From NCBI GenBank assembly GCA_951406725.2, contig OX597829.1:9424001-9488000 (forward strand): a stretch of DNA of 64,000 nucleotides, read 5' to 3'. The stretch is from Octopus vulgaris. Taxonomy: Eukaryota. Every line of letters starts with the position of its first letter. Positions within the stretch are counted from its first letter, which is position 1. The notes beneath the pieces are model-generated. The model worked only from the letters and a program-made list of their open reading frames with translations. It searched no databases and was not told the origin of the DNA. The position numbers were made by a program, and so were the translations under genes. Positions 17,439 to 58,152 of this stretch are shown here, one piece after another.

Positions 17439-17484
17439 AACACAACGTTTCGGCTGATATATCTTCCAGCCTTCATCAGGTGTC
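17439..17484 (-). ncRNA. Minimal type I hammerhead ribozyme (canonical C3-G8)
   Basis: Reverse-complement copy of 17534-17579. Confidence 0.8.
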
Positions 17485-17533
17485 TGGGGAAAATTTCGAA
17501 CCTGGGTTCTCATTCCTAAGGTATTTTCCCTAA

Positions 17534-17579
17534 GACACCTGATGAAGGCTGGAAGATATATCAGCCGAAACGTTGTGTT
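17534..17579 (+). ncRNA. Minimal type I hammerhead ribozyme (canonical C3-G8)
   Basis: ACAC-CTGATGA-A-GGCTG(gaagatatat)CAGCC-GAAA-CG-TT-GTGT gives stems I and II, a palindromic stem III (ACGT) and a GUU cleavage triplet. Confidence 0.8.
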
Positions 17580-19329
17580 AACAACAAACAAGATAAGGAC
17601 AAATATCCGTCGAATGTAAATAATGTAAATAATGTGCATAATTCCTCATCTCTCAAATATAAACCTGTACCACTTACGATGTTTTGACGATTCTGACGCT
17701 TCATTACAGTCAACTAAAAGAGCCTCTACGTGGTCATTCGGCTTGCAAGAAATGGCAGCCAAATCTGACAATTTAAATTCTAGTACCACAGACAAACGAT
17801 ATGCTACACAATTAAATCAATGATTGTACTAAAATACGCGATGGCCACGACTAGAATGCGTTTTTATTTCGGGTCTGAAATGTTTGACAACTAATGGTGG
17901 AGCCGCGAAATAGTAGCTAAATAGCCTTCTAATACATACTTCAGTTTTGAAAAAAAAAATGAAAGGTCACAACAGAAAAGAAATCCTGGATGTATAAAAG
18001 ATAGAACTTATTTAAAAAATAAGATAGGGTGGCCATGATAGGAACATCTTTGATCATAGATTTGTTCATTCAGAGCTGAATAACGAAGTACATTTACTGA
18101 AGCAACACATAAATAAATCTTTTCTATATTTGGTTTTTTCTGACCTGAGAGAATATTAATCTTCTTTCTAATGTCGTGTTACGGCAAAAAAATTGGCGTG
18201 TGAGAGAGTCATGCTGGAATGCTCAGTGCAGATTTGATCATTAGATATCATGATATCACCGAGGAATATGTGTGTTTGTGTGTTTTATTTGTTTCTTTCA
18301 TTAGACTTAGTCCATGCTGTGGCACCACCCTGAAAGATTTTGATGTAGCAACCCCGTACTTTTTAAGCCTGTTCTATCGATTCCTTTTGCCGAACCAGTT
18401 GTGAAGTGGTAGTGGAAAGCACACACACATAACGGGTTTCCGTCGACCAAACTCTTCTCACACGGTTTTGGTCGGCTCGAGGCTTATAGCTGAAGACATG
18501 GCCAGGTAACTGAACCCAGAATCATGTGGTTGAGAAGTGAACTTTTTACCATATAGCCGCGTGCGCTTTGCTAATTTTATTCATTATTGAATATGCTAAA
18601 TTTGCCATGCTTTAGATGGAAACACTTTACGCCATCGGATATATCAGAAAATTGGCAGAGTTGTTAGAACTCTCCAAGACTAGGTGACTTCTGGAGCTAA
18701 CGTCACCAATTATTTGACACAACGGTGAAGCCACAGGAAGAAGCTGTCAACTGACACTAAGGCCCATTTTTATACAACACGTAGCGCTGTAGAAATGAAT
18801 ATTGCCAACTACGAAATCTACACTGCTTCCCTTTCATAATTGGTTCATAATTTTCTTCATTGACCTCGAGAAGATGGGTGCCAAACTCATACTCGGATTT
18901 GACCTCAAAAACGTAAATGGATGCAAGACAACGGCGCAAAGAATTTTGTCCAGCGTCCTGCCTAATCTGGCATCCACAGCTTTTCTGCTCTCTTCTAAAT
19001 AGCATGATGAATAAATATGCCGAGTGTACACACAGCTATGGCGCTGGTCATGAACTTTTAGCAACATCAGTAGAACTCAAGTCGTGGGTATGCTCTCTGA
19101 ATTTTGAAAACATATTTCCTTATAATAATTAACATTTAATCTTGTCATTAATGCATTTCATTAATTAGCTATTCGCATGCTAATTGAAACCACATTTTCA
19201 TTTTAGTTTAATGTGAAATGATACAATCACTTTACATTTATGCTTCCATTTGCAATTTATACATATTTTCCATCTCAACAATTTTTTTTAGATGGATCAA
19301 CATTCTAGAAATAAGAGAGGGAGAGAGAG

Positions 19330-19550
19330 GGGAGGGAGAATTCCATGATGACGGTGATTAATTCAACTTTTGTCTGGATAGAAAGGAGGAGCATGTGGTT
19401 AAAAATCAAATCGATGTGAGACAAATCTGGGGGATTCGAAGCTAAACAATCACAGTTATGTTTTCCCAGTGCTAGTACATAGCTCCAGATATTATCAACT
19501 TTAATATGGAACTCGCATATGACTACAACAGCTCTATCACTAAAGCCTTT
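19330..19550 (-). mobile_element. Possible decayed APE endonuclease fragment of an RTE-type LINE
   Basis: RAVVVICEFHIKVDNIWSYVLALGKHNCDCLASN resembles IILGDFNARVG...W.GVLGKHG.G..NSN. Weak. Confidence 0.35.
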
Positions 19551-54920: not shown

Positions 54921-57491
54921 CCCATTAATGCCCAGCGTATGATTTATCATACACTTTTTTTGTGAGACGAAAATATTCATAAAAAATAATTTCATAAATT
55001 TAGGCATCAAAAACTTTCTGAATATTAAGAATAATAATATATCTAACAATATTTGGCATCAAAGTCATACTTTGAACATTTATACATTGCGCTAGACTCA
55101 TTTCTTTCTGTCAAATTTTGAAGTGAGGAAGAAGTGTTTCCGGTGGTAAGTTGTTTTATCTGAATGCTTTAAATGTTTTGTAATATATTATTTTACTTTT
55201 GTATTTTCTATTAAGTATTTTCTATTAAGAATGCAAACCAAGCATTCTTAGAATCCACGTAAATAAAGTTTCGATTTATTAACGTTTGTTTATGTGCGTA
55301 TGATAAAACATACGCTGTACTTTTCATTCAAAATAAAGATTTTCGGGTTTGGACATAGAATCGTTAATTCTGTAACAATAAGGCAAAAAACTTTAAAACA
55401 ATTGTAAATTAAAATATCTTGCTCTAGAATCTTAAATTTTCTATATCTGTTATTTATTTTTTGCATAAGTGCAAGTGAAATATATATATCAAATTCTTAT
55501 TTCTAGATCGGTGAATATGTCTAAGAGAAAACTTGATGGTGAAAGAGACACTGAAGAAATCCTAAATATAATCGAATCTGGTGATGATACTGAATATTTT
55601 ATTGAGGAAATTGGTAATGCTGATGAGCTTCGACTGATACTTCATCCACCAAATTATTCAGATGAAGATGATGCTTCAAGTGACTGCAAAGAATCTTCAG
55701 TAAATTTGCGAGACATTGGTAGAGATGGGATTAGAGCCTATAGTAAACCTGGTGTTGAGGTTCTCGATGTAGACACGGAGGTGATACTAAGGTCTGCGAA
55801 GAAGCACTGTTCACGTGCAAAGAAAAGTTCTCACAAACGGAATAATAAACCATTGAAACAGTCCCCTGCAAAGTATTATTATGATTCCGGTGTAACTGAA
55901 CTTTCGATTGTAATAAAATTTAGGGACAAGTTTGAGCCAACTGACATCTTCAAGGAGCGCTTCTCTAAAGATAATAGGAATCGTATTTGCAGCACAAAAG
56001 GAAGATTTGCAGTTTACTTTGTCTGTTGAAGATCTTTACAAGTATCTTAGAATTCTTCTATTGTCGGGCTGCAATAAACAACTCTGCAGAGGAATGTAGA
56101 GGGAAACTAGATCCCATTGAAACAATCATGCAATGTCTGGAAGTGCGTTTGAGAAAATACGTCAATATCTGTATTTCAATGACAACAGTAAACTCGATCC
56201 TTGTGATAAAGTCTATAATGTTAGGCCTCTTTTAGATCACCTAAATGATCTTTTTTGCCAATTTGTAGAACCATTTCTCTCTTGCTGAAGCAACGGAGCC
56301 TTATTATGGGCATCATAGCATGAAACAATTCATAAGAAGCAAGCCCATACGCTTTGGTTTCAAGTTTTGGTGCCTTGCCAGACCAGATGGATTCTTAGTG
56401 AAATTCTATCCTTACACAGGTGCAGGAGACAAAATTACAGGTAAAACACTTGCTTCTTCATTTACCGAAAAATTATGTTTAAAATTTGTACCAGTAGGAT
56501 CATGCATTTATATGGAGAACTATTTCACTTCTCTAACTTTCATGGATACCTTATCAAACAATGGTCCCTTTTGTGTTGGGACTATTCGAAATGATAGAAC
56601 AGAAAAATGCACCGCTACAGGATATAAGCAAAGTTGCGCGAGGTATCTGCTATGCAGTTGAGGATAAGGAGAATTAAATTACTCTGTTAAAATGGCATGA
56701 TAATAATCAAGAAAATCTTGCAGCCAATTTGAAAGCTGAGAAGGTTTTTGATGTTGGCAGGTGTAAATGATGGAAAAGAATTTGAGAGAAATAGAGCATC
56801 TGTACCTCAACCAAATATTGTGAAGCTATATAACAAACAAATGGGAAGTATCGATATAATTGATAAAATGAGAGGTCATTATCGAATTAGAATACGATCA
56901 AGAAAATAGTAGAGGCCTTTGTTTAAATTTTGCCTCAATGGAGGCATTGTAAATTTATGGATTCTTTTCCGCTGCATTTAGAGGAATATTTCTCTACAGG
57001 AATTTACAAGGCAAATAGTTACTGCATTGCTTGTTGCACCAGATTTAGAAGAGAAAGGAGTGGTACATCCTAAGACAAGGAAGCAACTTCCGCAAGTGGC
57101 ACGATTTGATAACAGAGACCACCTTGACAACAAAATTGGAACACAAAGGCGATGCACAGCTTGTGGAAAATGCACCAAATTTGTTTGCATCAAATGCAAT
57201 GTAGGCTTACATCCTGACACATTCTTTCTTCATTTTCATCAATAAATAGTATTCCTCTGAGAAATATTATATTTACTTGTCATTAGAAATTTTTGTAAAA
57301 CAAATAGATGAGGCTAAATTTTTTTTTTTACTTTGTCCTTATTTCAAAATTTTAACCCTACATGCCCAGAGTATCATACGGGTCTAAAAACTACTTTATC
57401 ATTATAATATTCACAAAATTTTGTTGTGAACATCTAAAATACATAAAAGTATACAATGTATGCGAATGTAAGAAAAAAATTCATTAATGGG
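54921..57491 (+). mobile_element. Full-length decayed piggyBac transposon
   Basis: ttag|CCCATTAATG ... CATTAATGGG|ttaa gives the TIRs and a TTAA TSD (left copy mutated). A subterminal atgcccag.gtat motif occurs near both ends. Confidence 0.92.
55517..57245 (+). pseudogene. piggyBac transposase (PGBD2/3-like group), multiple stops and frameshifts
   Basis: PYYGHHSMKQFIRSKPIRFGFKFWCL, IYMENYFTS, VGTIR, YNKQMGSID, and C-terminal CTAC...CIKCNVGLH. Confidence 0.92.
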
Positions 57492-57619
57492 TTAATATGC
57501 TCATTGGTTTTGAATTTTCTCCTCTAAAAGCAAAATAGATACGCTTTTACTTTAGAAGTTATCTCCCTTTCTTATTTTGAGCCTACTAATTTAATTGACA
57601 GTATCATTTGTAATCTTTG

Positions 57620-57765
57620 TCGCTACGTTCTGAGTTCAAATTCCGCCGAAGTCGGCTTTGCGTTTCATTCTCTGGGGTCGATGCATTAGGTATCAGTTGT
57701 GTACTGGGGTCAATCTAATCGTGGCTCCCTCTTCAAAAATTTCGGGCCTTGTGCCTAGAGAATAT
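57620..57765 (+). mobile_element. SINE family B fragment
   Basis: acgttctgagttcaaattccgccgaagtcggctttg...ccttgtgcctagag. Confidence 0.8.
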
Positions 57766-57779
57766 CATTTGTAATCTGT

Positions 57780-58152
57780 AATGCTCCGGCCCCACATTTT
57801 AAAACATACGCTAACTTTTGTTTGCCATTATGAAGAATACACTTTCCATGTTGGTAATTCCACATATAAACAGACAAAGGAACTAATTAGAGTAGTTAAG
57901 CTTAACAGGCCTATTTACCATTATATATGGCCGAAATCAGATCGCCATGTTGATTCGCTAGCCTCTGCACGCATTTTGTTCTCTCCTTGTTTCTTTCTGT
58001 GTTTCTTTTCTGTGTATCTTTCTGTTGAAGAGCGTAGGCTCGAACCGTAAAAGACTTGTTTTATTTATATTCCTGAGCGCCATACTAATACAATTGTTTG
58101 TTTGTATTCCACCTGCCTTCGTCTTTTGTTTATTTTCATAAAGCTTCCCGTT
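57780..58152 (+). mobile_element. Penelope-type 3' end with degenerate hammerhead-like motif at 58017-58054
   Basis: TCTTT-CTGTTGA-A-GAGC(gtag)GCTC-GAAC-CG-TA-AAAGA. The terminal ~30 bp recurs inverted at 46140-46172. Confidence 0.55.

Follow-up and report, generated by a model that had tools for sequence, protein, structure and literature searches.

Five different repeats in the window (the whole 64-kb stretch of DNA that was analysed) carry hammerhead-shaped motifs, among which every one of the four Watson-Crick combinations is represented at the 3-8 pair. We consider it probable that these motifs are minimal type-I hammerheads at the 3' ends of a Penelope-like element and of likely derived short repeats, with family-specific 3-8 pairs that have likely been selected and slow cleavage predicted to take place in dimers.

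Results

Hammerhead motifs in the window

The window was surveyed for strict minimal type-I hammerheads with a descriptor that included the helix III palindrome and left positions 3 and 8, as well as the identity of G10.1-C11.1, free. This yielded six matches, compared with a mean of 0.12 and a maximum of 2 per shuffle in 150 block-wise dinucleotide shuffles, where 3 of the 18 matches were Watson-Crick at 3-8. A relaxed scan added a seventh motif (UUGAGAA, at 26772-26808); a one-mismatch U-G match on the minus strand at 61036 was treated as chance. The motifs are as follows.

17439..17484, minus strand: minimal hammerhead C3-G8 (CUGAUGA), position 3 at 17479; inverted copy of the 17534..17579 motif
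17534..17579, plus strand: minimal hammerhead C3-G8 (CUGAUGA), position 3 at 17539; stem II of 6 bp, ACGU as the helix III palindrome, nucleotide added after A9; predicted cut after U17, at 17574
21871..21905, minus strand: minimal hammerhead A3-U8 (AUGAAUA), position 3 at 21900; identical to the 26388 copy
26388..26422, plus strand: minimal hammerhead A3-U8 (AUGAAUA), position 3 at 26393; stem II of only 2 bp, helix III palindrome ACCGGU; cleavage predicted 3' of C17, at 26417
26772..26808, plus strand: minimal hammerhead U3-A8 (UUGAGAA), the 26775 motif; stem I 3 bp including one G-U pair, stem II of 5 bp, helix III palindrome AAUU; present once in the window
36967..37017, minus strand: minimal hammerhead G3-C8 (GUGAACA), position 3 at 37010; stems I and II of 7 and 5 bp, helix III palindrome AAUAUU; cleavage predicted 3' of U17, at 36974
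45752..45834, plus strand: minimal hammerhead C3-G8 (CUGAUGA), position 3 at 45757; 54-nt stem-loop II, palindrome ACAUAUGU
58017..58054, plus strand: probable decayed hammerhead; C3-G8 retained, core breaks A6U and A15.1C

All motifs cited in the original prediction, which had claimed four distinct minimal type-I hammerheads, were found, and the positions given there coincide exactly with the left end of stem I. The decayed fifth motif that it placed at 58017 is probable; it does not appear among the scan matches at one mismatch or fewer. The motifs at 17479 and 17539 are inverted copies of one insertion, as are those at 21900 and 26393, so that the six strict matches represent four independent motifs. 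With the U3-A8 motif, the five independent motifs have C-G, C-G, A-U, G-C and U-A at 3-8 and none is mismatched; the asserted complementarity of positions 3 and 8 is thus borne out in 5/5.

The residues U4 G5 A6, A9, G12 A13 A14, A15.1-U16.1 and H17 are kept in all seven scan matches, which also share G10.1-C11.1 and a palindromic helix III; the invariant core as first described (U4, G5, A6, A9, GAAA, U16.1-H17 and palindromic helix III) is intact in 6/6 strict matches. Stems I and II totalling at least 7 bp with G10.1-C11.1 are found in 7/7 motifs versus 5 matches in 600 shuffles (stem I of at least 3 bp), and motifs equal in quality to the U3-A8 motif in none of the 600. All three non-canonical motifs are Watson-Crick at 3-8, compared with 42 of 191 non-C-G shuffle matches, a joint chance of about 0.01 by our own arithmetic. 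A nucleotide between 9 and 10.1 is present in three of the five motifs (17539, 26775 and 37010) and absent at 26393 and 45757. The window holds no direct tandem hammerhead copy, the copies being inverted or single, and a related 84% copy at 50804-51289 ends before reaching the hammerhead.

No Rfam hammerhead model matched the C-G (17539), G-C or A-U motif at E<=10, nor was there a hammerhead among the 150 listed of 190 Rfam matches to the whole window. Since Rfam misses even the canonical C-G motif, the 3-8 change is not the sole cause of missed motifs. The expectation that CUGANGA-based searches would overlook the variants holds in that the A-U, G-C and U-A motifs lie outside that descriptor, but the Rfam models fail on canonical C-G as well.

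The A3-U8 motif and its Penelope-like element

The A3-U8 motif at 26388..26422 lies on the same strand as an open reading frame (ORF) for a reverse transcriptase (RT) and a GIY-YIG endonuclease, ∼ 295 nt downstream of its stop. The corresponding features are the following.

23811..26098, plus strand: broken Penelope-like ORF with RT, Cys linker and C-terminal GIY-YIG (Neptune/Nematis type)
21816..22769, minus strand: second, inverted copy of the element's 3' part, spanning endonuclease and hammerhead; its identity to 25531-26477 is 97.3%

In Pfam the ORF matches RVT_1 (E 7e-4) and GIY-YIG (E 0.0016), both below the Pfam cut-offs; it is 69-73% identical to the intact P0002, with conserved linker cysteines (alignment A4). 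Judged by domain order, the 23.8-26.5 kb element is a Neptune/Nematis-type Penelope-like element; the Naiad clade was ruled out, as the endonuclease is C-terminal here and N-terminal in Naiad. A metagenome scan kept 7 loci from 201 candidates. One of them, the related locus L001 (endonuclease identity 44%), carries a canonical C3-G8 hammerhead in the same architecture, and its 4-nt palindrome, short stem II and absence of the extra nucleotide match the layout of the A3-U8 motif. Another, L007, has a canonical core that was found by eye, the scan having passed it over because 10.1-11.1 is unpaired. L002 stops just past its ORF, and no convincing hammerhead was seen in L003-L006; one-mismatch matches on the L001 minus strand and in L006 were treated as chance.

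The U3-A8 motif belongs to a smaller insertion.

26703..26822, plus strand: short insertion flanked by (TA)n runs; 26 nt are repeated, inverted and diverged, on the 5' side

It could be argued that the A3-U8 and U3-A8 motifs arose by decay of individual copies, or resemble hammerheads by chance, and that G3-C8 alone is a family trait. Both are known here from single loci; the stop and frameshift of the broken A-U element are common to both arms, so that decay may have preceded the duplication and the arms do not count as independent evidence; and the U-A motif is one copy with a 3-bp, G-U-containing stem I. We regard this as very unlikely: for a motif that is perfect elsewhere to decay by exactly these two transversions has a chance of ∼ 4e-4 at 10% divergence (our own estimate), the shuffles gave no motif of U-A quality, and U3-A8 is a known Penelope variant (PMC4209133, available part).

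A high-copy repeat with G3-C8

The G3-C8 motif sits in a short repeat, and no ORF was found in or near it.

36836..37101, minus strand: high-copy short repeat between TA runs, comprising a 5' inverted copy (∼ 37027-37101), hammerhead, 3' part and tail

The family was sampled in four of 24 listed public runs, none of the 24 being an RNA run (which has no bearing on expression); from the four, 3,908-6,551 contigs per run mapped onto the ∼ 270-nt repeat. G3 and C8 are the family majority. In the change tallies C3, U3 and A8 each stay below 5% in 4/4 runs and G8 in 2/4; the variant rows listed (there are 17 more) leave room for A3 or U8 as minor alleles and, in X1 and X3, for G8. Three listed changes fall within the motif, two in loop II (36990, 36992) and one at 36971, which turns U-A into U-G in 14-19% and leaves stem I paired. 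G3 as a junction artefact was rejected, given a summed depth of 0.12-2.4 million in bins 36995-37020 and an inversion joint at ∼ 37027. Thus G3-C8 is a family trait rather than decay, and a canonical family consensus, named at the outset as grounds for refutation, was not found. A 15-nt piece of the motif matched 120 viral loci, none with a hammerhead.

A hairpin of ∼ 210 nt (36888-37101, z -6.3) carries the motif at its tip. This hairpin, the lack of a nearby ORF and the loose contig ends, by which many copies seem to start ∼ 25 nt before the core, would suit a separate small element that is not Penelope-derived, such as a retrozyme-like circle or foldback with the long hairpin as functional unit. 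We think this unlikely. An inverted copy, with its junction at ∼ 37027 (opposite-strand joints at 36959-37027), makes up the 5' arm, and depth falls steeply beyond the junction; both strands fold alike (-84.4 and -82.8), and differences between the arms, counted by eye, give no clear G-U bias. No head-to-tail joint occurs among the 15 listed of 77, and Penelope insertions as described in the available part of PMC8557442 share the inversion at the 5' side, the tail at one end and the TA target. The repeat is single-copy in the window. On the fold and contig-joint evidence, the idea that the hairpin is a selected rod or a retrozyme was set aside.

Canonical motifs and the Penelope link

The C3-G8 pair at 17439-17579 lies inside an inverted repeat (17381-17637) whose predicted fold is a long hairpin (250 nt, -116 kcal/mol); such a hairpin would hide the hammerhead, a point against activity. 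Upstream of the 45752 motif there is a candidate coding remnant.

45136..45480, plus strand: decayed frame resembling, weakly, the second half of a GIY-YIG endonuclease (hhalign, tblastn)

The similarity is slight (hhalign E 0.005, probability 7%; tblastn E 0.029), and Pfam gave no GIY-YIG match for this frame. ORF similarity to Penelope was absent at the 17539, 26775, 37010 and 58022 motifs. The attribution to several Penelope-type families is secured by an RT and GIY-YIG ORF for A3-U8 only; a Penelope link for the other motifs is likely, by insertion architecture or weak similarity.

Discussion

Predicted cleavage and selection

Self-cleavage of the motif RNAs is predicted. Two copies in a source transcript would pair through their family-specific palindromes, building helix III, and the paired hammerheads would then cut after H17, perhaps with help of the element's protein; inverted or single copies dispersed in the window would be mostly inert by-products. 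More speculatively, a copy whose core is broken might still be cut by an intact partner in a dimer, and such cutting could let a family that undergoes a double transversion survive the mismatched stage.

In the literature, nucleotide 8 is held in place in the active fold by its pairing with position 3, and single mutants are dead. In the available text of Frangione et al. (2024; PMC11167929), C3G or G8C abolishes cleavage of the Anolis Poseidon hammerhead PAc, the double mutant C3G/G8C partly restores it, and protein-assisted cleavage is described; we count the partial rescue and the protein assistance in favour of our preferred explanation. According to the same text, insertion in vitro has no need for cleavage, hammerhead mutants are without effect and RNA-seq ends at the cut site were not found, all of which count against it.

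These last observations would also fit motifs that are hammerhead-derived and family-fixed but whose forms with a purine at position 3, A3-U8 in particular, have little or no activity; amplification would have proceeded because insertion needs no cleavage, and the 3-8 pairing would be left over from earlier selection or have a structural, protein-binding role. Cervera & De la Pena (2014; PMC4209133, available part) describe weak cleavage of metazoan Penelope minimal hammerheads, even in dimeric form. In a pairwise mutational scan (PMC9901934) only the G:C swap gave strong rescue, other double mutants, including the A-U and U-A swaps, being low, which counts against A3-U8 and U3-A8 activity. 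Contig cover of the G3-C8 repeat continues across the predicted cut site, and no loose end lies at 36974 among the ends listed (there are 775 more). We nevertheless judge this reading rather improbable, as a double transversion ending on a Watson-Crick pair in two families whose other core positions are intact, together with the lack of a mismatched 3-8 in any of the seven motifs, requires that the pair was selected at least while the variant arose.

We hold only tentatively to a bolder version of the preferred explanation, in which Penelope-type families of this animal lineage have all four Watson-Crick 3-8 pairs fixed and active, G3-C8 (in a repeat numbering at least thousands of copies) and A3-U8 are the first natural purine-3 forms, complementation in dimers explains how the double transversion was crossed, and CUGANGA surveys have missed them. 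If it is true, such surveys missed whole high-copy ribozyme families, perhaps in elements reported as hammerhead-less.

By comparison among natural sequences, the motifs support the 3-8 tertiary pair in four forms, purine-3 having been found in print only as engineered, and are natural substrates for a direct test of that pair. A double transversion held in a high-copy family argues for selection on the active fold, which bears on whether Penelope hammerheads do anything, insertion in vitro being cleavage-independent. Standard descriptors miss hammerhead families. This is neither a new ribozyme class nor a new mechanism.

Comparison with known systems

The hammerhead class, natural U3-A8 and engineered G3-C8 rescue in a Penelope hammerhead are already known, so that novelty narrows to natural A3-U8 and G3-C8; these were not found in the literature searched, and the alignments of Lünse, Weinberg and Breaker (2017), outside that search, may contain them. 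Short strings of the 17539, 26775, 37010 and 45757 motifs are absent from the Craig 2021 supplement, where matches to shorter strings, including the A-U motif, looked unrelated where shown. The A-U and G-C strings are absent from the supplement of a 2026 octopus repeat paper, whose repeat library is deposited separately.

The elements in the available part of PMC8557442 (2021) likewise have the order RT, Cys-rich linker, C-terminal GIY-YIG, as well as an inverted 5' copy, a tail and microsatellite targets; the hammerhead searches there used the CUGANGA descriptor. Small dimeric hammerheads (Lünse et al., 2017; review PMC6765202, available part) share the reduced stem III, dimer cleavage and Penelope association. 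Covariation at 3-8 in natural hammerheads was also described by Perreault et al. (2011; PMC3088659), who, in the available text, name U3-A8 and not purine-3 pairs.

Close counterparts are the hammerheads of PMC4209133, which, in the available part, are likewise type I with a short stem I, G10.1-C11.1, a palindromic helix III, a 3' position, an optional nucleotide after A9 and inverted second copies. U3-A8 is known there from S. mansoni and one Saccoglossus row in Fig. S3, a figure that, as available, has only C3-G8 and U3-A8, with no mention of A3-U8 or G3-C8. The published core letters (C3-G8 or U3-A8) fit three of our motifs and differ at 26393/21900 (A3-U8) and 37010 (G3-C8). In contrast to that set, the present window has all four 3-8 pairs inside 64 kb, and G3-C8, an engineered mutant of PAc in the available text of PMC11167929, is here the majority form of a natural high-copy repeat.

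Hammerhead motifs in the window

We searched both strands of the 64 kb window with a descriptor that fixed U4, G5, A6, A9, GAAA, U16.1-H17, stem I, stem II and a palindromic helix III and left positions 3 and 8 free. The six matches were exactly the motifs of the original prediction, whose coordinates correspond to the left ends of stem I and whose 3-8 pairs (C-G, A-U and G-C) are all Watson-Crick. Shuffled sequence gave a mean of 0.12 and a maximum of 2 matches (150 shuffles) versus 6 in the real window, and 3 of these 18 shuffle matches had a Watson-Crick 3-8 pair. Allowing a stem I of 3 bp added a seventh motif, with a UUGAGAA core. 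By their position 3, the motifs are:

17539 (+) and 17479 (-), inverted pair, C3-G8
26393 (+) and 21900 (-), inverted pair, A3-U8
26775 (+), U3-A8
37010 (-), G3-C8
45757 (+), C3-G8

All seven have stems I and II of at least 7 bp together and G10.1-C11.1, a combination seen in five matches from 600 shuffles, none of which equalled the U-A motif in quality with a paired 3-8. With the inverted copies merged, there are five independent motifs (C-G, C-G, A-U, G-C and U-A). Only 42 of 191 non-C-G shuffle matches were Watson-Crick at 3-8, so that finding three of three is an event of about 1%. The hammerhead motifs are real and include one variant beyond those predicted; this U3-A8 motif completes the set of four Watson-Crick 3-8 states in the window. 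The decayed motif expected at 58017 retains C3-G8 and has two core breaks.

The overlooked U3-A8 motif lies within a short TA-flanked insertion (26703-26822). An inverted 5' copy accompanies each of the 17539, 26775 and 37010 motifs, the latter two flanked by TA runs on both sides, and we found no ORF similarity near any of the three. The 45757 motif is downstream of a weakly GIY-YIG-like remnant. For the plant MIR9486 model, whose cut-off is 100, the inverted pair at 17452-17567 reaches 69.8 bits; Penelope-type ends in inverted orientation can look like microRNA hairpins.

The G3-C8 family

The G3-C8 repeat (36836-37101, minus strand) was sampled in four public runs of the 24 listed (four organism labels, four studies), using region 36800-37160 at 80% likeness. 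Between 3,908 and 6,551 contigs mapped per run, and summed depth, which is not copy number, was 0.12-3.2 million over the motif versus 4-16.5 on the unique flank; the repeat has thousands of copies or more. The flank is the same in all four runs (0-1 differences), and they are therefore close relatives rather than four separate lineages.

Among the 40 differences listed (17 more exist), none fell at 37004-37010, and those within the motif affect loop II or change a stem I U-A to U-G. C3 and U3 are each below 5% in all four runs, because all C>G and C>A changes were assigned to other positions. By tallies of change type, A8 is below 5% in all four runs and G8 in two; one G>C has no assigned position in each of two runs (X1 and X3). 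A3 and U8 may exist as minor alleles, and the unlisted C>T and G>A changes would fit CpG sites. The claim that the non-canonical cores are consensus states and not post-insertion decay thus holds for this family, in which G3-C8 is established as the family state.

The inverted 5' copy best explains the 210-nt hairpin (z -6.3) that surrounds the motif, since joints to the opposite strand map to 36959-37027 and both strands fold similarly. Loose ends within 36836-37101 suggest that many copies start ~25 nt upstream of the core, not at the predicted cut site.

The A3-U8 element and its relatives

The A3-U8 hammerhead (26388-26422, plus strand) follows a broken Penelope-like ORF (23811-26098, plus strand) with Pfam scores under cut-off; in tblastn, the intact relative P0002 shows 69-73% identity. 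Upstream lies an inverted copy of 954 nt (97.3% identical) with the same hammerhead sequence; one stop and one frameshift are common to both arms, which are therefore not independent. Seven metagenome loci are related to the endonuclease. One (L001) carries a C3-G8 hammerhead in the same layout, and in another (L007) a canonical core was recognised by eye behind the related endonuclease; in the remaining five the sequence stops early or no hammerhead is visible. These two loci suggest that A3-U8 was derived from C3-G8 inside this endonuclease group, and A3-U8 is probably a family state. The L007 core (CUGAAGA, ~262-305) has its first stem II position unpaired.

Between the inverted copy and the element start, part of the RT C-terminal region is present once more in sense orientation (22767-22949, 81% to 25364-25565). 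At 50804-51289, a sister Penelope family is represented by a 3' fragment (84% to 25870-26371) that is joined directly to the preceding RT-like frame and stops just before the hammerhead.

Other elements

The most common short repeat in the window is presumably an octopus SINE. A 28S rRNA fragment (47422-47796, Rfam E 1e-34) has a match ending near 47735, presumably the R2 target site. Downstream lie broken zinc-finger and RT-like frames (49088-50800); together they are possibly an R2-like insertion outside rDNA, and a search of three frames gave no Pfam match. Segment 47737-47916 is repeated at 48456-48628 (80%). A piggyBac-like transposase remnant occupies 55469-56661 (PF13843, E 5e-17).

Activity and comparison with known hammerheads

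Przybilski and Hammann reportedly found in 2007 that one ribozyme tolerates any Watson-Crick 3-8 pair. PMC3088659 refers to their study for the activity that covarying pairs have in vitro. A pairwise mutational scan of another hammerhead had only the G:C swap strongly rescued (PMC9901934), so that A-U and U-A would be disfavoured; in an Anolis element, cleavage needs protein, is abolished by C3G and by G8C and is partly regained in the double mutant, and in vitro insertion is independent of it (PMC11167929). Metazoan minimal hammerheads did not cleave as monomers and cleaved weakly as dimers (PMC4209133).

The palindrome differs from motif to motif, with computed self-duplex energies of +2.2 to -8.3 kcal/mol. 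Source transcripts would be predicted to cleave as dimers, with family specificity through the palindrome and stem I; the window copies, being single or inverted, are probably mostly inert. Dimer complementation might, speculatively, offer a route past the double transversion.

Neither A3-U8 nor G3-C8 turned up as a natural core in the full-text literature searched, a comparison made without Lünse 2017 (the likeliest source), the PMC3088659 supplements and bioRxiv supplements, and with the Craig supplement (PMC8557442) covered by string search only. The one G3-C8 mention encountered in these searches (PMC3884650) is a variant assayed in a mutant study, and full-text searches that combined hammerheads with octopus yielded only PMC8557442 and general papers. 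The hammerhead class, the dimer logic and a natural U3-A8 are already in print (PMC4209133, PMC3088659), and the arrangement of the A3-U8 element matches that of Neptune/Nematis elements as described in PMC8557442.
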